Made by a program: the position numbers and the translations under genes
Notes under the pieces: generated by a model
The model's database searches: none
Seen by the model: the letters and a program-made list of their open reading frames with translations, nothing else
What the model was told of the DNA's origin: nothing
Shown here: positions 7,835-51,582 of the stretch, in pieces
How the letters are laid out: each line of letters begins with the position of its first letter
Numbering within the stretch: position 1 is the first letter of the stretch
Source of the DNA: a virus
Taxonomy: Duplodnaviria > Heunggongvirae > Uroviricota > Caudoviricetes
DNA: 56,113 nt
Virus record (IMG/VR): IMGVR_UViG_2923334124_000002
Reading direction: 5' to 3' (one strand)

Positions 7835-8584
7835 TCACTGATCTCCTTCGGTCAACGGAGATTGTATTTTCCGCATTGATTCTCCTTTAAGTTCGATCTT
7901 GATACTGCCATGAACCAGTCGATCTAGGATGGCATCCGCATGTGTGGAGTCTCCGATCATTTTGTACCAGTTTTCCACCGGCAACTGGCTCACTACGATG
8001 ATTGAGCCTCGTTGGTACATCAGATCCACTATTTCCAGCAGGTCGCTACGCTGTTCTGATGAGAGAGGTTCCAGCCCCCAGTCATCCAGAAGCAGCAGAT
8101 CGCTATTATTCAGCCTGGTCAAAAGTTTGCTGTATCTTCCATCAGCATGCCCCTGATAGCACTGTTCCATCAGCGCTTTAAGGCGATAATAGTAGACCTT
8201 GTATCCCTGTCGGCAGGCATTATGACCAAGTGCACATGCCAGGAACGTTTTACCGCTGCCGGTGGCCCCGGTCAGTAAAATATTTTGTTTCAGGGTTAAC
8301 CAGTTTCCCTGACTGAGTGAACGGATGAGGGCCCTGTCCAGCCCTCTATTGTTACGATAATCCAGCTTTGATAACTCAGCATTAAGTCTGAACCGTGCAT
8401 GTTTGATCAGACGCTCTGCCTTCCTGTTTTCACGGCAGGTTAGTTCTTCTGCTGTCAGTAATGACAGGCGTTCTTCGAAGCCCAGCTCCTGGTATGTGCC
8501 CGGTTGAGCAAGTTGCTTTTTAAGCGCATCACGGAAGCCGGTGAGTTTAAGTGCGGTCAGTTGTTCGTAAAGATGATTCATCAT
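7835..8584 (-). CDS. istB: IS21-family helper ATPase IstB
   Basis: 249 aa; Walker A GATGSGKT; DnaC-like. Confidence 0.9.
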   Translation of the reverse strand: MMNHLYEQLTALKLTGFRDALKKQLAQPGTYQELGFEERLSLLTAEELTCRENRKAERLIKHARFRLNAELSKLDYRNNRGLDRALIRSLSQGNWLTLKQNILLTGATGSGKTFLACALGHNACRQGYKVYYYRLKALMEQCYQGHADGRYSKLLTRLNNSDLLLLDDWGLEPLSSEQRSDLLEIVDLMYQRGSIIVVSQLPVENWYKMIGDSTHADAILDRLVHGSIKIELKGESMRKIQSPLTEGDQ

Positions 8585-8595
8585 TGGATCCCGTA

Positions 8596-10137
8596 TCAGT
8601 GGTAATACTCACTGCCGCGTACGTTTTCGTGTTCCATCGTGGATAACAGATCTGGTTTTGGATCCTGAACAGGTTGTTTATCCAGACCTTTTTCCAGGAT
8701 CGATTTAATACCTGACAGACGCCATACCTTTGTTTTCAGAGCTCTTGCACATGCTGCATTAAGTCTGGCTTTACTGTATTTTTTATGAAGGTTCAGGAGT
8801 CCAAGGCAGAAGCGATAGCTTTGTTCCGGATGTGGACGAGAGTTCAGTATATGAAGCACATAACTATGAGTTTCACTGCCTATGTGCCCCGCCCATTCCA
8901 GAAGACGCTCTGGCGTCCAGGTGGCATGCTGTCGATGAGCTTCAGGCATGTGCTCGTTGCGGGTACTGTAGCCATAAGTACGCTTGCGCGGGTGCACAGC
9001 AACCTCCTGCCCCTGATTGAAGAGTCTTACCAGTTCTCCGGAGATCCATGCTTCCAGTTGCTGGCCTAACAGCGAACATGGAACCGAGTAGTAATGTTTG
9101 TCGATTTCCACGTGGTAATCGGCATGAACTCTGACTTTCTTCACCAGGGTGTAACTGTAACTGGCTTCAGGAAGAGGCTTCAGTGCGGGTTTATCAAGCT
9201 GGATGAAGAGTTCTGCACGTGAATAACCCAACTTCTGCATTATTTTGTTATTCAGTCTTTCCAGCAACTCCCGAATGCGCTGATTAAGCGATGCAAGGCT
9301 GTAGAAGATCTCATGCCTGATTCGGGCCATGATCCAGCGTTCAACAACCTGAACGCCAACTTCAGCTTTGGCTTTATCTTTCGGTTTACGTGGCCGCGCA
9401 GGCAAAACTGCGACATTATAATGCTCAAGCATCTGCTGGTAGGTAGGGTTAACGTCAGGATCATACTTACATGCCCTGGATGTGGCGCTTTTCAGATTGT
9501 CCGGAACAACAAGTTCAGGAACGCCACCCAACCACTGGAAGCAGCGAACATGACTCATCACCCAGTCTTCAAGCTGCTGAGACCAGGTGGCCTCTGCCCA
9601 TGTGTAACTTGATGCCCCGAGAACAGCTACGATGACCTGAGCAGTTCTTATTTCTCCGGTCTCAGGGTCGGTAACGCCAACGGTAGGTCCACAGTAATCA
9701 ACGAAAAGTTTTTCGCCAGCTTTATGTACCTGACGCATTGATGGTGAAGTGGTTTTGAGCCATTCACGGTACATCCGGCAGTAATGGTTATAGCTGTAAA
9801 AACCGCCTGGATTACGCTCACAGTATTCTTCCCAGAGTAGCTGCAGCGTCACGCATTTATTACGCAGTTCCCGGTGTACTGTAGCCCAGTCAGGCAGAGA
9901 GTGCTTCTTCATCTTAACCTGGGTCTGAAGGAACGCATGTTTTAGTTTTGTATCATCCCATCCTGTAGGTAAGGGCCACTGCTTTATGCCAAGTTGAGCC
10001 GCCCGATTAGCATATCTGGATACAACGGAAGGGGAGATTGCAAGACTACGACCAATTTGTCGATGGCTGAGTCCAACACCGTATTTAAGCCTAAGAATTT
10101 CTTTAAGTTTTCTCATAGAAATTGGAACTGTTGGCAT
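8596..10137 (-). CDS. istA: IS21-family transposase IstA
   Basis: 513 aa; N-terminal HTH and DDE-type core characteristic of IstA. Confidence 0.9.
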   Translation of the reverse strand: MPTVPISMRKLKEILRLKYGVGLSHRQIGRSLAISPSVVSRYANRAAQLGIKQWPLPTGWDDTKLKHAFLQTQVKMKKHSLPDWATVHRELRNKCVTLQLLWEEYCERNPGGFYSYNHYCRMYREWLKTTSPSMRQVHKAGEKLFVDYCGPTVGVTDPETGEIRTAQVIVAVLGASSYTWAEATWSQQLEDWVMSHVRCFQWLGGVPELVVPDNLKSATSRACKYDPDVNPTYQQMLEHYNVAVLPARPRKPKDKAKAEVGVQVVERWIMARIRHEIFYSLASLNQRIRELLERLNNKIMQKLGYSRAELFIQLDKPALKPLPEASYSYTLVKKVRVHADYHVEIDKHYYSVPCSLLGQQLEAWISGELVRLFNQGQEVAVHPRKRTYGYSTRNEHMPEAHRQHATWTPERLLEWAGHIGSETHSYVLHILNSRPHPEQSYRFCLGLLNLHKKYSKARLNAACARALKTKVWRLSGIKSILEKGLDKQPVQDPKPDLLSTMEHENVRGSEYYH

Positions 10138-33190: not shown

Positions 33191-33358
33191 GGATATTTAT
33201 CAGGATTTATCGGTTTCTGAGCCCTGGATATGTTTATCAGTTCCAGCCTGTTGCCTCAGGCTGCTAACAGGTCGTAAGCGTAAACTGACCGCCGTATGTA
33301 GCCATCAGACGAGAATTGGTAACTTAGACGCCCATCTGATATAGACGGACATCTAAGT

Positions 33359-33784
33359 ATGGAATTACAGGACTGGCGAAAAGAACCTCGTAAAAACTAT
33401 TCGAATGAATTCAAACTTCGTATGGTGGAACTGGCATCACAACCTGGAGCTTGTGTTGCACAGATTGCACGTGAAAATGGCGTCAATGATAATGTTATTT
33501 TCAAATGGCTCAGGCTCTGGCAGAACGAAGGGCGTGTTTCGCGGCGTCTTCCGGTAACGACCTCTTCTGACACTGGCGTTGAATTATTACCTGTAGAAAT
33601 AACGCCGGATGAGCAGAAAGAACCTGTGGCGGCCATTGCGCCGTCTTTATCCACTTCCACTCAGACCAGAGTCAGTGCCAGTTCCTGCAAGGTGGAATTC
33701 CGTCACGGTAACATGACGCTGGAAAATCCATCGCCAGAGCTGCTCACAGTGTTGATCCGTGAACTGACCGGGAGGGGAAGATGA
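33359..33784 (+). CDS. tnpA: IS66-family accessory protein TnpA (orf1)
   Basis: 141 aa; HTH; first ORF of IS66-type element. Confidence 0.8.
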   Translation: MELQDWRKEPRKNYSNEFKLRMVELASQPGACVAQIARENGVNDNVIFKWLRLWQNEGRVSRRLPVTTSSDTGVELLPVEITPDEQKEPVAAIAPSLSTSTQTRVSASSCKVEFRHGNMTLENPSPELLTVLIRELTGRGR

Positions 33785-34131
33785 TCTCACTCCCATCAGG
33801 TACCCGTATCTGGCTCGTTGCCGGCGTTACCGATATGCGTAAATCCTTCAACGGACTGGGAGAACAGGTACAACATGTGCTGAATGATAATCCCTTCTCC
33901 GGTCACCTGTTTATCTTCCGTGGCCGACGGGGTGACACCGTCAAAATTCTTTGGGCTGATGCTGATGGTCTGTGCCTGTTCACCAAACGCCTGGAGGAAG
34001 GCCAGTTTATCTGGCCTGCGGTACGTGACGGCAAGGTATCCATTACCCGCTCGCAACTGGCAATGCTCCTCGATAAGCTGGACTGGCGTCAGCCAAAAAC
34101 ATCCAGCCGTAACTCACTGACAATGTTGTAA
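33781..34131 (+). CDS. tnpB: IS66-family accessory protein TnpB (orf2)
   Basis: 116 aa; conserved IS66 Orf2 pattern; overlapping stop/start with orf1. Confidence 0.85.
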   Translation: MISLPSGTRIWLVAGVTDMRKSFNGLGEQVQHVLNDNPFSGHLFIFRGRRGDTVKILWADADGLCLFTKRLEEGQFIWPAVRDGKVSITRSQLAMLLDKLDWRQPKTSSRNSLTML

Positions 34132-34161
34132 AAAACTCCTGACCGCATTATAAAAACGGTC

Positions 34162-35775
34162 ATGAGTCAGAAATACCTCATTCGCATCGCAGAGCTGGAA
34201 AGGTTGCTCTCTGAGCAGGCTGAAGCCCTCCGTCAGAAAGACCAGCAACTGAGTCTGGTTGAAGAGACGGAAGCCTTCCTGCGCTCTGCACTGACACGTG
34301 CCGAAGAAAAGATCGAAGAAGATGAACGGGAAATAGAACATCTGCGGGCTCAGATAGAAAAACTGCGCCGGATGCTGTTCGGTACCCGTTCTGAAAAACT
34401 GCGTCGTGAAGTTGAACTGGCTGAGGCTCTGCTGAAACAACGTGAACAGGACAGCGATCGTTACAGTGGGCGGGAAGACGATCCTCAGGTTCCCCGCCAG
34501 TTGCGACAGTCGCGCCATCGTCGTCCGTTACCGGCACACCTTCCCCGTGAAATACACCGCCTGGAGCCAGAAGAAAGCTGTTGCCCGGAGTGTGGCGGTG
34601 AGCTGGATTATCTGGGGGAAGTCAGCGCTGAACAGCTGGAACTGGTGAGCAGTGCCCTGAAAGTGATCCGCACAGAACGGGTAAAAAAAGCCTGTACAAA
34701 ATGTGACTGTATTGTTGAAGCACCGGCGCCGTCCCGCCCGATAGAGCGTGGTATCGCGGGCCCCGGATTACTTGCCCGCGTGTTAACGGGAAAATACTGC
34801 GAACATCTGCCACTGTATCGTCAGAGTGAAATCTTTGCCCGCCAGGGTGTCGAACTGAGCCGGGCCTTACTCTCCAACTGGGTTGACGCGTGCTGCCAGT
34901 TAATGACACCGGTGAATGATGCCCTGTACCGTTATGTAATGAACACCCGCAAGGTTCACACTGATGACACACCGGTAAAGGTACTGGCACCGGGTCAGAA
35001 AAAGGCGAAAACAGGGCGTATCTGGACGTATGTCCGGGATGATCGCAATGTGGGTTCGTCATCTCCTCCAGCGGTCTGGTTCGCGTACTCGCCGAACCGG
35101 CAGGGGAAACACCCGGAGCAACACCTCCGCCCCTTCCGGGGTATCCTGCAGGCGGATGCGTTCACAGGTTACGACAGGTTGTTCAGTGCAGAACGTGAAG
35201 GTGGTGCACTGACAGAAGTTGCGTGCTGGGCCCATGCCCGGCGAAAAATCCACGATGTATACATCAGCAGCAAAAGTGCGACGGCAGAAGAAGCCCTGAA
35301 GCGAATCAGTGAACTGTACGCCATCGAGGATGAAATACGGGGATTACCGGAGTCAGAGCGTCTTGCCGTCAGGCAGCAGCGAAGCAAAGTGTTACTGACG
35401 TCGCTGCATGAATGGATGGTGGAGAAGAATGGTACGCTGTCGAAAAAATCCAGACTGGGCGAAGCGTTCAGCTATGTACTGAATCAGTGGGATGCCCTCT
35501 GTTATTACAGTGATGACGGTCTGGCGGAGGCGGATAATAATGCTGCGGAAAGAGCGCTTCGTGCAGTCTGTCTCGGAAAGAAAAACTTTATGTTCTTTGG
35601 CAGCGATCACGGCGGCGAGCGTGGAGCACTGTTGTACGGGCTGATCGGCACCTGCCGTCTGAACGGTATCGATCCGGAAGCGTATCTGCGCCATATCCTG
35701 AGCGTACTGCCGGAATGGCCTTCCAACCGAGTTGACGAACTCCTGCCATGGAACGTAGTACTCACCAATAAATAA
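34162..35775 (+). CDS. tnpC: IS66-family transposase (TnpC)
   Basis: 537 aa; leucine-zipper N-terminus, zinc-ribbon CPECGG, DDE core. Confidence 0.9.
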   Translation: MSQKYLIRIAELERLLSEQAEALRQKDQQLSLVEETEAFLRSALTRAEEKIEEDEREIEHLRAQIEKLRRMLFGTRSEKLRREVELAEALLKQREQDSDRYSGREDDPQVPRQLRQSRHRRPLPAHLPREIHRLEPEESCCPECGGELDYLGEVSAEQLELVSSALKVIRTERVKKACTKCDCIVEAPAPSRPIERGIAGPGLLARVLTGKYCEHLPLYRQSEIFARQGVELSRALLSNWVDACCQLMTPVNDALYRYVMNTRKVHTDDTPVKVLAPGQKKAKTGRIWTYVRDDRNVGSSSPPAVWFAYSPNRQGKHPEQHLRPFRGILQADAFTGYDRLFSAEREGGALTEVACWAHARRKIHDVYISSKSATAEEALKRISELYAIEDEIRGLPESERLAVRQQRSKVLLTSLHEWMVEKNGTLSKKSRLGEAFSYVLNQWDALCYYSDDGLAEADNNAAERALRAVCLGKKNFMFFGSDHGGERGALLYGLIGTCRLNGIDPEAYLRHILSVLPEWPSNRVDELLPWNVVLTNK

Positions 35776-35835
35776 GCGTCAATACGGTGCTCCGTTGACG
35801 CTTACAACAGGTCAATACAATCATGAGGATTATTT

Positions 35836-39238: not shown

Positions 39239-39685
39239 GGAGTTTACTCACATCTGACAAAATCAATATAAACAGCCCCTCCGGAGAGGGGCTGGAGAGT
39301 GGCGCTATGTGCCATTGCATGGTGCCGGGTGCCTCCCGGTGAATTCAGTACCAGCACCTGAATCCGCGATTATCCCATATACCTACTCGCTGATTGCCCC
39401 TCCGCACAGGGGGATTCACCATGCCAGTTTCTTTTAACAAACTCCCCGCAAACCAGACAACAATCAACCGCCTGAATTGTGAAGTATTTAAAAATTTCTC
39501 CCGCTAACTGATACCCGGCTAACAGTCTGGCGTTTTCTTTTTCAGCAACGGGAAAGCAACAACCACCACACCCGCCACCAGCACACCGTCAGCCAGCACT
39601 GACATTATCCGGCTGCAGCAATGCCATTCACAAAAACAGTAAGCAATCACTTTTTACCGTAACCGGTGATAATCCAGATATGTAT

Positions 39686-40149: not shown

Positions 40150-40226
40150 TGGCGCGCTGTACTGGATTCGAACCAGTGACCGATTGCTTAGAAGGCAATT
40201 GCTCTGTCCGGCTGAGCTAACAACGC
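40150..40226 (-). tRNA. argO: tRNA-Arg (anticodon TCT)
   Basis: cloverleaf-compatible 77-nt sequence gcgttgttagctcagc...ccttCTaagc...ttcgaatcc...gcgcgcca read on minus strand. Confidence 0.8.
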
Positions 40227-40326
40227 TGAATACCGATAATGGACCGCCATCGGGGACCCGCCCCCGCACCAACAACCCTGTTATCGTGTCGTCTGCTCTT
40301 CCTGATAAGCTAATGGCGGTTTGTGA

Positions 40327-40402
40327 TGGTGGCCCTTGCTGGATTTGAACCAGCGACCTGGCGATTATGAGTCGCTCGCTCTCACCACTGAGCTAAAGGG
40401 CC
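40327..40402 (-). tRNA. ileZ: tRNA-Ile2 (anticodon CAT, lysidine-type) or tRNA-Met
   Basis: ggccctttagctcagtggtgagagc...actCATaatcg...ggttcaaatcc...gggccacca; closely resembles remembered ileX/ileZ. Confidence 0.8.
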
Positions 40403-44772: not shown

Positions 44773-44928
44773 TTACTCCTCAGGTTCGTAAGCTGTGAAG
44801 ACAGCGACCTCCGTCTGGCCGGTTCGGAGTCGTACCTCGCAGAGGTCTTTCCTCGTTACCAGTGCCGTCACTATGACGGTTAAACAGATGACGATCAGGG
44901 CGATTAACATCGCCTTTTGCTGCTTCAT
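44773..44928 (-). CDS. hok: Hok-family type I toxin (HokD/RelF-like)
   Basis: MKQQKAMLIALIVICLTVIVTALVTRKDLCEVRLRTGQTEVAVFTAYEPEE is near-identical to remembered HokD. Confidence 0.85.
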   Translation of the reverse strand: MKQQKAMLIALIVICLTVIVTALVTRKDLCEVRLRTGQTEVAVFTAYEPEE

Positions 44929-45165
44929 AGCCTGCTTCCCCTTGCCTTTCGGCACGTAAGAGGCTAACCTACATTTGTGAGACATAGATTGGGCCTCAGA
45001 TTAATGTTAAGCGTCTTGCAGGACGCGAAATGTTAACTGGGGCTTTTCTCTATCTGCCTTTCAGTGTTCATGCCTGAGACAGATAGCCTCAAGCACCCGC
45101 AGCCATTCTACTTAACTCACGTCACCTCGCCAATATGAAATCAATCAGAAAGGTGATCCATAAAA

Positions 45166-45852
45166 TCACTCCTTCTCTTCTTTTCCGTAGTGGAGTTGGC
45201 CAATTTTGATAAGAGGGCGTCCCTGAGATTTGCGGTGTAGATTGGTATCGCGCAGAGAATACACACAGCCACAATATTCCTGCTGATAGAATTTTTCGCG
45301 CTTGCTGATTTCAATCATACGGGACGAGCCGCCCTGCTTGCGCCAGTTATAATCCCAGTACACCATACCCGGATAATGCGCAACAGCTCGCCGCCCACAC
45401 TCGTTAACCTGCTGCATATTTTTCCAGCGTGAAATGCCCAGTGAACTGCTGATCACACTGAAACCATTTTCAGCAGCGTACAACGCTGTCCGCTCAAAAC
45501 GCATGTCAAAACACATGGTACAACGGATCCCCCTCTCAGGCTCCCATTCCATTCCTTTGGCACGTTCAAACCAGTTGTCGGTGTCGTAATCAGCATCGAT
45601 AAACGGCACGCCGTGTTGTTCAGCAAAGCGAATATTTTCATCCTTACGAATTAAATACTCTTTCTGAGGATGAATGTTCGGGTTGTAGAAAAAGATGGTG
45701 TAGTCGATTCCCGAGGCCTGAAGCGCCTCCATCACTTCACCGGAACATGGAGCACAGCAAGAGTGCAGTAGTAGTTTGTTTGCCCCGTTTGGGAGCTCCA
45801 ATTTAGGCCGTTTGAAATCAGCAATAGTCATAAATATTTTTATTGGGGTCAT
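45166..45852 (-). CDS. queH: DUF208 / epoxyqueuosine reductase QueH-like protein
   Basis: 228 aa; [39 protein letters not shown] motifs match remembered DUF208/QueH signature. Confidence 0.7.
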
Positions 45853-46005
45853 GAAAATAGCACAGAGTGTAGCATCAGAGCAGGGCTATCGGGAATATAT
45901 GTCTAAATCTGGTAATATCTGGTTTTGACGCAAAGCGGACAACCACGCTGGCTCTACCCTGCGCCATGAAAATGTCAATTCACATCTGAACTAATGCTCT
46001 TTAAT

Positions 46006-46446
46006 CTAGTAACGTCTAAAATACCTAACATTTCCTTGATAAAATGCCAGTACACGCTGCATAGCTTCGCTCTTCCGGCACTCGCGACAGATTATATTCA
46101 GGCGCCTGTCGTAGCGGCGTATTTCGCCGTCTGGTAACGACCAGATAAGGTCCGGATCAACCACTGCAGGTTTCTTCACCTTTGCCCTTGAGAGTTTTTT
46201 GCGAGCATTTTGCCAGTCCTTACGCGCCTGTTCAGACGGGAATAACCCGTAACCAGAGTTGTATACATCGCCACTGGCAACCAGCTCTCTGGCGAGAACA
46301 CTCATCAGATATCTTGTCGCACCTGTCTTGGCTTCCAGTTGCCGCAACGTCTCGCGACCGCTCAGACGTACAAGTTCAACAACCTGCCCTTTAATTTTTT
46401 CCCGCTCTTCTTGTGTAAATACTTTTGCCATAAGCGCCTCCGGCAA
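46006..46446 (-). CDS. hypothetical protein (146 aa), basic C-terminus with CxxC
   Basis: ORF; stop/start abuts upstream gene. Confidence 0.45.
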   Translation of the reverse strand: MPEALMAKVFTQEEREKIKGQVVELVRLSGRETLRQLEAKTGATRYLMSVLARELVASGDVYNSGYGLFPSEQARKDWQNARKKLSRAKVKKPAVVDPDLIWSLPDGEIRRYDRRLNIICRECRKSEAMQRVLAFYQGNVRYFRRY

Positions 46447-47217
46447 TCACTTTTCCGATACAACACGGCGGGAAGAATCAGTAATCTGTCGAACAATATC
46501 CCGGTGCTTGTTCAGCTCCCGCAGCGCGGCGCAGACTCGCTCCCACTTCTGAACATCACTTTTCGCCCTGCGCAGCGCCAGGTTTGCCCTGCGAAGGGAC
46601 GGAAAAATCAGCTCATCTGCTTGCGTTTCGGTAAACGATGGCAACGGCTGCACAATGTCCGCCACAGTTTCTGTTTTAATTTCTTCCTGTGTTGCGGCTT
46701 CCCGGACTGGTAACGCAGCACCTGCTGGCTGAGGAAAGGCCTTACCATCACTTTCCGTTACCAGCGCGGCTTTCGGCTCTGCTGGTAAATTATCGCCCGG
46801 CATGCAGTAACGAAATTTACCGTTCTGATTAACGCGTGCCAGCCGCCCCGTTGCGGTTACCACCGCCAGCGTGGAAGCAACCTTGCGAGTACTGACACCG
46901 AACTTACCCGCCAGTTCCTCACACGTTTTAGCCCCATCCTGACCGATAAACTCAATCATCATGTCTGCGGTAACTTTTTGTTCGACCTCCCCGGTCAGCA
47001 TATCCTGTGCTTCAGATTTTACTGGCCGCTCTTCGGTTACCCGGGATTCACCTTCGCCAGCCAGAAACCAGGTGTGACCAGTTTTATCAACGACGCCTTT
47101 TCTTTTGAGTTCCCACAGCTCGTTGACAGCCTCTTCACGACTGATTCCAAGGCGAGCTGCCACCACATGTGAAGAGGCTTTTTTCAGTGCTTTCAGTGCG
47201 TCAGATACGGTTTCCAT
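46447..47217 (-). CDS. hypothetical protein (256 aa) with two winged-helix-like segments
   Basis: ORF; two N-terminal HTH-like stretches (AARLGISREEAVNELWELKRKG; GKFGVSTRKVASTL). Confidence 0.45.
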   Translation of the reverse strand: METVSDALKALKKASSHVVAARLGISREEAVNELWELKRKGVVDKTGHTWFLAGEGESRVTEERPVKSEAQDMLTGEVEQKVTADMMIEFIGQDGAKTCEELAGKFGVSTRKVASTLAVVTATGRLARVNQNGKFRYCMPGDNLPAEPKAALVTESDGKAFPQPAGAALPVREAATQEEIKTETVADIVQPLPSFTETQADELIFPSLRRANLALRRAKSDVQKWERVCAALRELNKHRDIVRQITDSSRRVVSEK

Positions 47218-47238
47218 TAAAATTTCCTCCGGACAAAA

Positions 47239-47985
47239 TTACTTCACAACCCTCATATTGCTGACATTTGGACGCCAGCTATCCCAGTTAAACGTCACCC
47301 ATCGACCACCGTTCATGGTCATGCGGTCCATAATCCTCTCACCAAGAAGCGTACTCATTGCGGCATGATTCAGGTTTGTTAACATCCCGACACTGCACAG
47401 TGATGCTGTCCGGCGATCAATTATCTGGTGCAATACCACCTGCTCGTTTTTCGTCTCCCGCTGAACGCCTATTTCATCCAGGACCAGCAAATCAACCCCG
47501 CAAAGCTCCTGTAAAAATTTTTCCCCGGATTTGCCGTTGTCGTAGCTGTCATGCAACACGCTCATGACGTCAGACACGGTGACGATAATCACGCTGCGCC
47601 CCTTCACCATCAGCCGGTTGCCCATCGCCGCTGCAAGGTGATTTTTCCCGGTGCCGGTTTTACCGCTGAACACAAAATTCGTGCACCCGGTCATCAGTTC
47701 GTCAGCTATGGATTTGGCCTGGCTCAGCGCGTATTTTTGCCCGTCGTTCTGCACCTGATAATTTGCAAACGAGCATTTGCTGTGCAGAGGCTGGATGCCC
47801 GAACGATTCAGGATTTTTTCCACCCGCAACTGGCGATTCTGGCGGTTAATCTCCTCGCTGCGTTTTCGTCCTTCAGCAAGTTGCCATTCCCGCCACTCCT
47901 CCACCGTCCGGTACGGTGGAACCGACCCCTGTGGTGCAAGTCTGCGAATACGTTCAAGAACCCCAACTGCCGCAATGTTTTTCAT
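47239..47985 (-). CDS. DnaC-like replicative helicase loader (P-equivalent)
   Basis: 248 aa; Walker A GKTGTGKNHLAAA and Walker B LLVLDEIG. Confidence 0.85.
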   Translation of the reverse strand: MKNIAAVGVLERIRRLAPQGSVPPYRTVEEWREWQLAEGRKRSEEINRQNRQLRVEKILNRSGIQPLHSKCSFANYQVQNDGQKYALSQAKSIADELMTGCTNFVFSGKTGTGKNHLAAAMGNRLMVKGRSVIIVTVSDVMSVLHDSYDNGKSGEKFLQELCGVDLLVLDEIGVQRETKNEQVVLHQIIDRRTASLCSVGMLTNLNHAAMSTLLGERIMDRMTMNGGRWVTFNWDSWRPNVSNMRVVK

Positions 47986-47991
47986 GACACG

Positions 47992-48969
47992 TCACCCCCT
48001 GAATCCCGGCGGTATTTCAGTGTCCGGTTCAGAAATGTGATTCACGCAACGCTGCGCAGGCGAACGCCCCAGGCGGATAACCAGTTCATCCCATTTTTCC
48101 CGGAGTTTTGCCGGACTCATGATGTTTTTTACCCAGAACGAATCCCGCTGGAGACGCCCAAACATTTCACAAATTTGTCTGTGAGTTCTGCCATCCAGCA
48201 TCCGCATTGTGCGAACGTCATTGGCCCATGCTGTCCAGTTGGGTTCTTTCGGTCTAGTGATCTCGCCATCATAGCTGGCCGCCTGCTCGTAAAGACTCAC
48301 GATTCGTCCCCAGATCCACTGTGCGCACACCAAATCTTCCTGACTTCCCCACTGGCGTTTTTTCGCACTGAACACAACCGCGTCAGGGTGTCGGGTTAAA
48401 AAATCCTGTTCAGCCGTCTGCGGGTCCGGTTGCGAAGCGTCCGGACAAGAAGATCTTTTATCTGACGGATCAGGTTTTAATACTGACGGATCGGGGTCAA
48501 TCATCGGCCCCCTAATCGGCAGTTTTTTATCAACAGTTGATCCATCAAAATTTGACGGGTCAACCGTTGAGGGGTCAATATTTGACGGGTCAACTGTTAA
48601 CGGGTCATTTTTTGCCGGGCTAATTTTTCTTTTCGGTTTATATGACTCACGCGCCGCCGCCGCAGCTGCTTCGAGTTTTTCCACATTAAGCCGATAGATA
48701 TTGCTTACATTACGCCCACCGACCTTACGCTCTTCCTTCGTCAGCCAGCCCTCTTTCGCCAGTTCTGCAATAGCCGATTTCACTGTGGATTCACTTCTTG
48801 CACCGATCTGACGCCGGATAGTTTCAATGGCAGGCCATGACACGCCCTCGTCATTGCTGTAGTCTGCAAGACGGGCCATAACCGCCACCCTGGATAAGAT
48901 CATGCCGGTGAAGGCGCACCCTTCCCAGACAAGACCATGAAGCTTGCTGCTCATAAAACCCCCGAACAC
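47992..48969 (-). CDS. replication initiator (lambda O-like) containing the iteron-type origin
   Basis: 325 aa; N-terminal HTH; internal peptide repeats TVDPSNIDPSTVDPSNFDGSTVD encoded by DNA iterons. Confidence 0.75.
   Translation of the reverse strand: MFGGFMSSKLHGLVWEGCAFTGMILSRVAVMARLADYSNDEGVSWPAIETIRRQIGARSESTVKSAIAELAKEGWLTKEERKVGGRNVSNIYRLNVEKLEAAAAAARESYKPKRKISPAKNDPLTVDPSNIDPSTVDPSNFDGSTVDKKLPIRGPMIDPDPSVLKPDPSDKRSSCPDASQPDPQTAEQDFLTRHPDAVVFSAKKRQWGSQEDLVCAQWIWGRIVSLYEQAASYDGEITRPKEPNWTAWANDVRTMRMLDGRTHRQICEMFGRLQRDSFWVKNIMSPAKLREKWDELVIRLGRSPAQRCVNHISEPDTEIPPGFRG
48545..48612. repeat. ori iterons: four copies of about 17-bp TTGACGGGTCAA-like repeat followed by an AT-rich stretch
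   Basis: tttgacgggtcaacc gttgaggggtcaata tttgacgggtcaact gttaacgggtca read from sequence. Confidence 0.6.
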
Positions 48970-51524: not shown

Positions 51525-51582
51525 TTTCTGGTGACGTTTGGCGGTATCAGTTTTACTCCGTGACTGCTCTGCCGCCCTTTTT
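51525..51582 (+). ncRNA. dicF: DicF sRNA (ftsZ-targeting, processed from the dicB operon transcript)
   Basis: tttctggtgacgtttggcggtatcagttttactccgtgactgctctgccgcccttttt matches remembered DicF including terminator-like 3' end; preceded by about 340 nt ORF-free structured leader and followed by dicB. Confidence 0.6.

Follow-up and report, generated by a model that had tools for sequence, protein, structure and literature searches.

At positions 46006-47217 of IMG/VR record IMGVR_UViG_2923334124_000002, two adjacent genes, here called gene A and gene B, encode proteins of catalogued, extremely common and already known prophage families, DUF1627 and DUF977, and occupy the usual place of these families as the last two genes of the early-right operon, behind the replication genes. 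The window (the whole 56,113-nucleotide stretch that was analysed) is a complete, intact lambdoid prophage of Escherichia coli, and both genes lie on its minus strand. Profile and motif place gene B in the lambda Ren family, a link that PHROGs reveals and that the Pfam and RefSeq names hide. Gene A aligns as the full-length form of YdaW from the K-12 Rac prophage. We tentatively favour, at somewhat less than an even chance, the reading that both are winged helix-turn-helix (wHTH) accessory proteins of the replication module in the lytic phase, with a Ren-like role for gene B.

Family membership and domain architecture

Gene B (141 amino acids (aa); 46006-46431, minus strand, start ATG 46431, stop 46006-46008) passed the cut-off of the Pfam family PF06163 (DUF977) by a wide margin, scoring 97.7 bits against 22.1 over model positions 1-133 of 134. 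It is 100% identical to the RefSeq DUF977 family protein WP_001151161.1. Gene B also falls in PHROG 142, labelled 'Ren-like exclusion protein' (E 1.7e-46, profile positions 1-113 of 116), as does lambda Ren itself (NP_040633, 96 aa, from NC_001416; E 1.6e-41, profile positions 11-110). Homologues in phage records are variously named LygF, YdaW family or Ren-like exclusion protein.

Direct comparison of the two proteins converged on a C-terminal motif, N-I-x-x-E-C-R-x-S-x-x-M-x-R-V-L-A-x-Y, which occupies aa 110-131 of gene B (RLNIICRECRKSEAMQRVLAFY; 46039-46104, minus strand). BLASTP paired NIICRECRKSEAMQRVLAFY of gene B with NLVFKECRQSAAMKRVLAVY of lambda Ren, with 12 of 20 residues identical (E 5e-7), and hhalign matched an alignment of DUF977 to one of Ren over the same 22 residues (probability 94.6%, E 6.5e-8). 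The N-terminal wHTH regions of the two proteins were co-aligned through the PHROG profile only; both hhalign and BLASTP aligned the C-terminal motif alone.

AlphaFold2 modelled aa 7-85 of gene B (46177-46413, minus strand) as a confident wHTH domain, with a predicted local distance difference test score (pLDDT) of 87-94 over most of the stretch and a poorly defined C-terminus. This agrees with the earlier classification of DUF977 as a winged helix by Kinch et al. (PMC2686095). The top Foldseek matches were generic wHTH regulators of the MarR, GntR and ArsR types. No match in PDB or BFVD reached E <= 1e-3, and lambda Ren was not among the top BFVD matches. As an earlier note made from the DNA letters had stated, the protein is basic (isoelectric point 10.1; 30 Lys and Arg versus 17 Asp and Glu).

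Gene A (256 aa; 46447-47217, minus strand, start ATG 47217, stop TGA 46447-46449) matched the Pfam family PF07789 (DUF1627) at 328 bits, against a cut-off of 28.1, over the complete model (positions 1-155 of 155) and aa 91-245 of the protein. The same family was matched by 38 of 39 diverse relatives. Gene A also belongs to PHROG 630 along its full length (E 9e-133) and is 100% identical to RefSeq WP_000450998.1, a DUF1627 domain-containing protein. With both products in curated families and identical to named RefSeq proteins, the earlier description of the two genes as unknown does not hold. Alignment to K-12 Rac YdaW (b1361) extended over aa 1-154 with 55% identity (BLASTP, E 4e-55). The family is small: among 1.84 billion cluster representatives searched exhaustively with HMMER, only 154 clusters were recovered.

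An alignment of 39 full-length members (A3; 21-65% identity) revealed a conserved N-terminal wHTH, a variable acidic or proline-rich linker, a second wHTH, a second variable linker and a conserved C-terminal segment. The N-terminal winged-helix-like domain (aa 1-56; 47050-47217, minus strand; METVxDALKAxGKA...W50) is the best-conserved block, with L34 and W50 invariant. It matched phrog_16668 and, weakly, HTH_Crp_2, TrmB and MarR; its predicted helices span residues 4-11, 16-23 and 27-39 (pLDDT ~66-76). For the second winged-helix-like domain (aa 84-140; 46798-46968, minus strand), the family profile yielded weak matches in PDB to wHTH proteins of the ArsR, AspA and Zalpha types (E 2e-4 to 1e-2); gene A itself also matched phrog_142 weakly here (3e-6), with helices predicted at 84-91, 99-106 and 110-123. 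The two winged-helix-like segments that the earlier note had seen in the 256-aa protein are thus borne out by weak matches at aa 1-56 and 84-140 and by the predicted helix pattern. The C-terminal segment (aa 197-255; 46453-46629, minus strand; IPxF..P....EIRRTK..L..LE..R.A.R...KH) is conserved in the same alignment, with R216 nearly invariant. It was modelled as one long helix (pLDDT 70-80), which probably mediates oligomerisation, and also occurs as separate PHROGs (29124 and 1888).

Taken whole, the gene A model consists of two three-helix bundles, disordered linkers and the long helix 197-255. Its mean pLDDT of 54 was too poor for meaningful fold-search matches in PDB or BFVD. Profile searches with gene A returned only sub-threshold matches, all to wHTH families (TrmB, MarR, FeoC, ArsR, AspA and Zalpha). 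Family, profile and fold searches found no enzymatic domain in either protein, and sequence search found no relative of either with a solved structure.

Two further relationships were considered and rejected. Weak profile matches of the second wHTH of gene A to ADAR1, ZBP1 and PKZ (E 2e-4 to 0.5) raised the possibility of a Zalpha-type binder of Z-DNA or Z-RNA. The Z-DNA contacts of ADAR1 we take to be N173, Y177 and the wing residues P192, P193 and W195. In the HMMER alignment gene A has Ala at the positions of N173 and Y177 and lacks the PPxW wing motif. Nor do genes A and B appear to be paralogues: hhalign gave a probability of 1.9% for DUF1627 against DUF977 and 15% for DUF1627 against Ren. 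As far as these comparisons reach, the two proteins share a generic wHTH and no likeness beyond it.

The DUF1627 gene is itself mosaic. Divergent alleles in relatives L055, L063, L077-L083, L004 and L163 retain ~62, 22 and 54% identity in the first wHTH, the linker and the second wHTH, respectively, and ~85% in the C-terminal half. The combination of a divergent N-terminal half and a conserved C-terminal half therefore places an intragenic recombination point near aa 140. The N-terminal domain gave no clear signal of specificity for the type of helicase loader, with divergent alleles occurring beside both types.

Position at the end of the early-right operon

In the direction of transcription, the RefSeq annotation of the region reads LexA-family repressor (divergent), Cro/CI, YdaT-family protein, HTH-domain initiator, 'ATP-binding protein' and DUF1627, followed by DUF977, QueH, hokD, DUF968, RusA and antiterminator Q. 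The earlier note had placed the genes between the helicase loader and a nin-like region, and this position is correct: a DnaC/IstB-like gene lies on the 5' side and QueH, hokD, DUF968, RusA and Q on the 3' side. The 5' neighbour encodes a DnaC/IstB-like helicase-loader ATPase (47239-47985, minus strand; Pfam IstB_IS21, 7e-19, and also Bac_DnaA), itself preceded by an O-like replication initiator (47992-48969, minus strand; Pfam HTH_36 and DnaD_N).

Short spacers join the genes, 21 nt from the stop of the DnaC-like gene to gene A and 15 nt from the stop of gene A to gene B, and each contains GGAGG. Read off the sequence, the putative ribosome-binding site of gene A (47226-47230, minus strand) lies 8 nt 5' of ATG 47217, and that of gene B (46437-46441, minus strand) lies within the 15-nt spacer 3' of the gene A TGA. 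No promoter-like or terminator-like site was seen from cro to the end of gene B. Because of this continuity and the short GGAGG-bearing spacers, cro through gene B look like one early-right operon, comprising cro, YdaT, initiator and loader genes and ending with genes A and B.

Both open reading frames (ORFs) of the earlier note, 256 aa (46447-47217) and 146 aa (46006-46446), are present, on a strand that it had left unstated. Their supposed stop/start contact at 46446/46447 is an artefact. The 146-aa ORF on the minus strand begins at the first TTG after the gene A stop, in a junction that reads ...GAA AAG TGA TTG CCG GAG GCG CTT ATG GCA..., and the ATG at 46431 stands behind GGAGG, 15 nt from gene A. 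This ATG is also the start used in RefSeq WP_001151161.1 (141 aa). In relative L034 a GTG replaces the ATG codon, and the ORF listed there starts at that GTG. A true overlap of stop and start was accordingly rejected, with the TTG start treated as a product of ORF listing.

Two apparent A-B fusion proteins, P0002 and P0004 (403 aa and 372 aa), were likewise set aside as single metagenome gene calls and not natural fusions. An in-frame TTG (46444-46446) follows the gene A TGA (46447-46449), and the 403-aa call read this TGA as Gly; the other call is a product of frameshifts and looks artefactual.

Both genes are coding, as differences from diverged homologues are concentrated at third codon positions. 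Typical counts at the first, second and third positions were ~5/3/31 for gene B and ~13/17/33 for gene A. Rfam placed no RNA family within either gene. Near both genes no DNA repeats or operator-like palindromes were found besides the iterons in the O-like gene. These tandem 15-nt TCAAnnnTTGAnGGG units (48530-48619) are likely an origin iteron array; they are partly palindromic and, in the manner of lambda O/ori, code for a repeated 'DPS..DPS' peptide in the initiator.

A separate observation concerns the C-termini of the initiators. Unrelated types (HTH_36 O-like, DUF1376/YdaU-like and a 339-aa type) end in a common tail, ...(R)CVNHISEPDxEIPPGFRG or ...PDSxIPPGFRG, located at ~47992-48050 in the window and also present in L034, L057, L167 and L173. 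The next gene is either a DnaC-like loader or DUF977. The tail may be a docking peptide or a recombination linker.

Distribution and possible roles

Many E. coli chromosomes contain the 1.4-kb interval at 100% identity. Of 5426 complete E. coli genomes, 4600 had some matching DNA, and in 1140 a match extended over at least 80% of the interval. GenBank phage records contained a gene A homologue in 24 cases and a gene B homologue in 24, with both, adjacent, in 12. To survey the neighbours, we used 158 IMG/VR loci with close relatives, of which 123 had a readable gene 5' of gene A. This gene encoded a helicase loader in 122 of the 123 (104 DnaC-like, 18 lambda-P-like) and an insertion sequence (IS) protein in the remaining one. 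DUF977 came after DUF1627 or, in 27 IMG/VR loci without DUF1627 (one cut at a contig end), stood directly 3' of the initiator with no loader gene. Conversely, the DUF1627 homologues of Serratia and Enterobacter (27-39% identity) still lie immediately 3' of replication genes with no DUF977 after them, and PPompW phages have DUF1627 and lack DUF977. A scan of GTDB genomes with a reduced DUF1627 alignment recovered nine loci, so that the breadth of Escherichia, Serratia and Enterobacter is a lower bound. The two genes are therefore separable, and each is linked to the replication module.

The variable slot proposed by the earlier note does exist, one gene further downstream. Among relatives L005-L162 the hypervariable cargo site is the position directly 3' of gene B (45853-46005), and genes A and B themselves are kept after the replication genes. 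The ORF 3' of DUF977 is QueH in 76 related loci; elsewhere the place is taken by at least 15 unrelated ORFs, or hok follows directly. On a rough reading, with labels unscanned, the cargo includes a 591-aa AIPR-like, a 375-aa DUF262-like and 343-345-aa proteins, a Nudix-like protein, a methyltransferase and IS elements. In the window the site is occupied by the gene for epoxyqueuosine reductase QueH (45166-45852, minus strand; Pfam QueH, 1e-65), with the replication module on one side and hokD on the other; as metabolic or tRNA-modification cargo it is unusual for a lambdoid prophage. Of the earlier proposal, then, the comparison with lambda ren stands for gene B in family (PHROG 142), C-terminal motif and position, and the variability of the locus stands when moved to the 3' site; exclusion functions in a variable slot do not. 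Both genes are clearly assigned to families, the function of these families is unproven, and the presence or absence of each gene is modular.

What is known of Ren comes from lambda. The gene is non-essential for the phage (PMC10695390). The supplement of Thomason et al. (bioRxiv 10.1101/2021.04.19.439022) describes poor growth of heteroimmune lambda lacking ren on Rex+ lysogens and places suppressors of this defect in O and P. It also reports that RexA and RexB each interact with O and Ren in the bacterial two-hybrid assay (BACTH) and that RexB binds Ren in the yeast two-hybrid assay, and it describes Ren as conferring resistance to Rex exclusion, not exclusion itself. For gene A, the relevant precedent is K-12 ydaW. 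An overexpression screen picked it out, together with four other prophage genes, as a blocker of RcaT, the toxin of retron-Sen2 (bioRxiv 10.1101/2020.06.22.160242; PMC11951105). This retron-toxin blocker belongs to DUF1627, not DUF977.

In the reading we favour, both proteins would be small, non-enzymatic winged-helix proteins made only in lytic growth alongside the replication proteins. As accessory factors, neither enzymes nor classical repressors, they would target the replication-initiation complex or its DNA. Gene B, with its predicted N-terminal wHTH, basic linker and Ren C-terminal motif, would by analogy with Ren spare O/P-type replication from abortion by abortive-infection (Abi) systems of the RexAB type, and may contact the initiator and Abi proteins. 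Gene A, with two predicted wHTH domains, disordered acidic or proline-rich linkers and a terminal long helix, may have a similar counter-defence or replication-modulating role and could be a second such factor. The suggested binding to DNA or protein and the suggested anti-Abi role derive from lambda Ren and from one screen result. Should Ren/DUF977 and YdaW/DUF1627 indeed shield phage replication from Abi, these abundant genes would offer an easy experimental entry point.

Several points weigh against this reading. The statistically solid similarity of gene B to Ren is confined to the 22-residue motif, with the wHTH parts joined through the PHROG profile. This prophage has no rexAB beside its repressor, so a Rex-specific role is not self-evident. 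Each gene is found without the other, so that joint action is not required. The DUF1627 model is of low confidence (mean pLDDT 54), and the YdaW screen result was obtained with an overexpressed, truncated pseudogene product. For both proteins of this prophage, the proposed roles are carried over from homologues.

The alternatives differ mainly in how much they make of replication, regulation or defence. Genes A and B could be purely replication factors with no link to defence, tuning the activity of initiator or loader, the choice of origin or the switch from theta to sigma replication. Their constant placement 3' of initiator and loader genes fits this idea, as do the mapping of ren suppressors to O and P and the supplement cited above (bioRxiv 10.1101/2021.04.19.439022), in which ren is described as a companion of initiator-helicase-loader modules, 'likely involved in DNA replication'. 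We nevertheless consider it unlikely, though worth serious attention: ren is dispensable for lambda on ordinary hosts, each gene is missing from some otherwise similar replication modules, and no repeated DNA resembling binding sites lies near the genes, the sole iterons being those in the O-like gene. Slightly less probable still is that both are ordinary MarR/ArsR-type winged-helix regulators of phage or host transcription. All detectable similarity is indeed to wHTH regulators, short Ren-like proteins are annotated as MarR family, and a list of predicted E. coli transcription factors includes YdaW (PMC9308461). However, every match to such regulators was under its family cut-off, no ligand-binding domain or canonical MarR/GntR/ArsR dimerisation domain was found, and no operator-like palindromes were found nearby; the position distal to the replication genes, kept across genera, is also not one beside a regulated divergent promoter.

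Defence enters the remaining explanations in different ways. It is doubtful, on present evidence, that both proteins serve counter-defence, with gene B stopping replication complexes from triggering Rex-like Abi and gene A neutralising retron-type (RcaT-like) or other Abi effectors. If true, they would be among the most widespread anti-Abi modules of temperate coliphages, a rank that would follow from the presence of matching DNA in about 85% of complete E. coli genomes. The converse suggestion, made by the earlier note, is that the genes are prophage cargo that excludes superinfecting phages. It can point to a real cargo hotspot in the neighbourhood and to the label of PHROG 142, with its category 'moron, auxiliary metabolic gene and host takeover', yet this label is a misnomer, because Ren gives resistance to Rex exclusion and does not exclude. 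Both genes lie in the cro-proximal early operon without a promoter of their own and are therefore expected to be silent in the lysogen, which argues against exclusion expressed from the prophage. Both are also conserved where the adjoining site varies. No defence model in PADLOC-DB was matched: gene A gave only weak wHTH-type hits to the HTH portions of CARF, Csa3 and CasR (E ~1e-3), and gene B and lambda Ren gave none. We thus judge exclusion highly improbable. We give even less credence to a toxin-antitoxin-like cassette that pairs an HTH antitoxin with a small basic toxin. In its favour one might cite that two short genes stand side by side in one orientation, that one product is basic and that K-12 ydaW scored as a toxin blocker. 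The pairing is not obligate (both genes in 12 of the 24 phage records holding each, 27 loci with DUF977 and without DUF1627, and divergent DUF1627 loci without DUF977), both proteins are wHTH with no toxin fold, and there is no separate promoter.

Other prophage features and known relatives

Several other elements were located in the window. A hokD/sok type I toxin-antitoxin locus spans 44773-45098 on the minus strand, with the Rfam sok match at 44923-45098 (120 bits) and the Hok-family ORF at 44773-44985. Two small RNAs, DicF (51526-51577, plus strand) and STnc100 (39264-39453, minus strand), were also found. Two tRNA genes at 40153-40402 (minus strand) are tRNA-Ile and tRNA-Arg in the identical RefSeq region, downstream of Q and a DNA methyltransferase. 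The lysis-gene region contains a 2.5-kb insertion (33274-35805) that the prophage of E. coli 4/1-1, identical in all else, lacks; its three ORFs of 141, 116 and 537 aa have a layout that resembles an IS66-family element. At ~7835-10137, by colinearity with NZ_CP023844.1, the IS21-like ISEc12 (istA/istB) interrupts lom (Ail/Lom) in the RefSeq prophage; over this stretch the window is 99.99% identical to NZ_CP023844.1.

Among known systems, the MarR, ArsR and GntR regulators have a fold like that modelled for aa 7-85 of gene B and for the two wHTH segments of gene A. Genes A and B differ from them in falling below the family cut-offs, in lacking effector and dimerisation domains and in their genomic setting. 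Much closer are the LygF/DUF977 proteins of temperate phages of E. coli and Shigella (75/02 Stx, POCJ13, HannyBb and mEp460), which are 70-96% identical to gene B and likewise encoded 3' of the replication genes. In half of the phage records the gene directly follows the initiator, with neither a loader nor a DUF1627 gene.

Intact Rac phages share the order of the present prophage, with ydaU-ydaV-ydaW-lygF matching initiator, loader, gene A and gene B, and the full-length 'ydaW' of Rac-SA53 is 65% identical to gene A over its whole length. The initiators differ, being HTH_36 O-like here and DUF1376 YdaU in Rac. In K-12 YdaW, truncation after ~151 homologous residues has removed the C-terminal helix, whereas gene A is full length; K-12 Rac has also lost the DUF977 gene that the present prophage keeps.

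Lambda Ren resembles gene B in the C-terminal motif ECRxSxxMxRVLAxY, behind an N-terminal region that, as aligned through the PHROG profile, is probably also a wHTH, and in being encoded in the pR operon directly 3' of the replication genes. With 45 additional residues, gene B has a basic linker at aa 67-109 and a CxxC (C115 and C118) where Ren has one Cys. Ren has no Pfam match at all, DUF977 included, whereas gene B matches DUF977. Finally, lambda ren overlaps the end of P, while a 15-nt spacer separates gene B from gene A.

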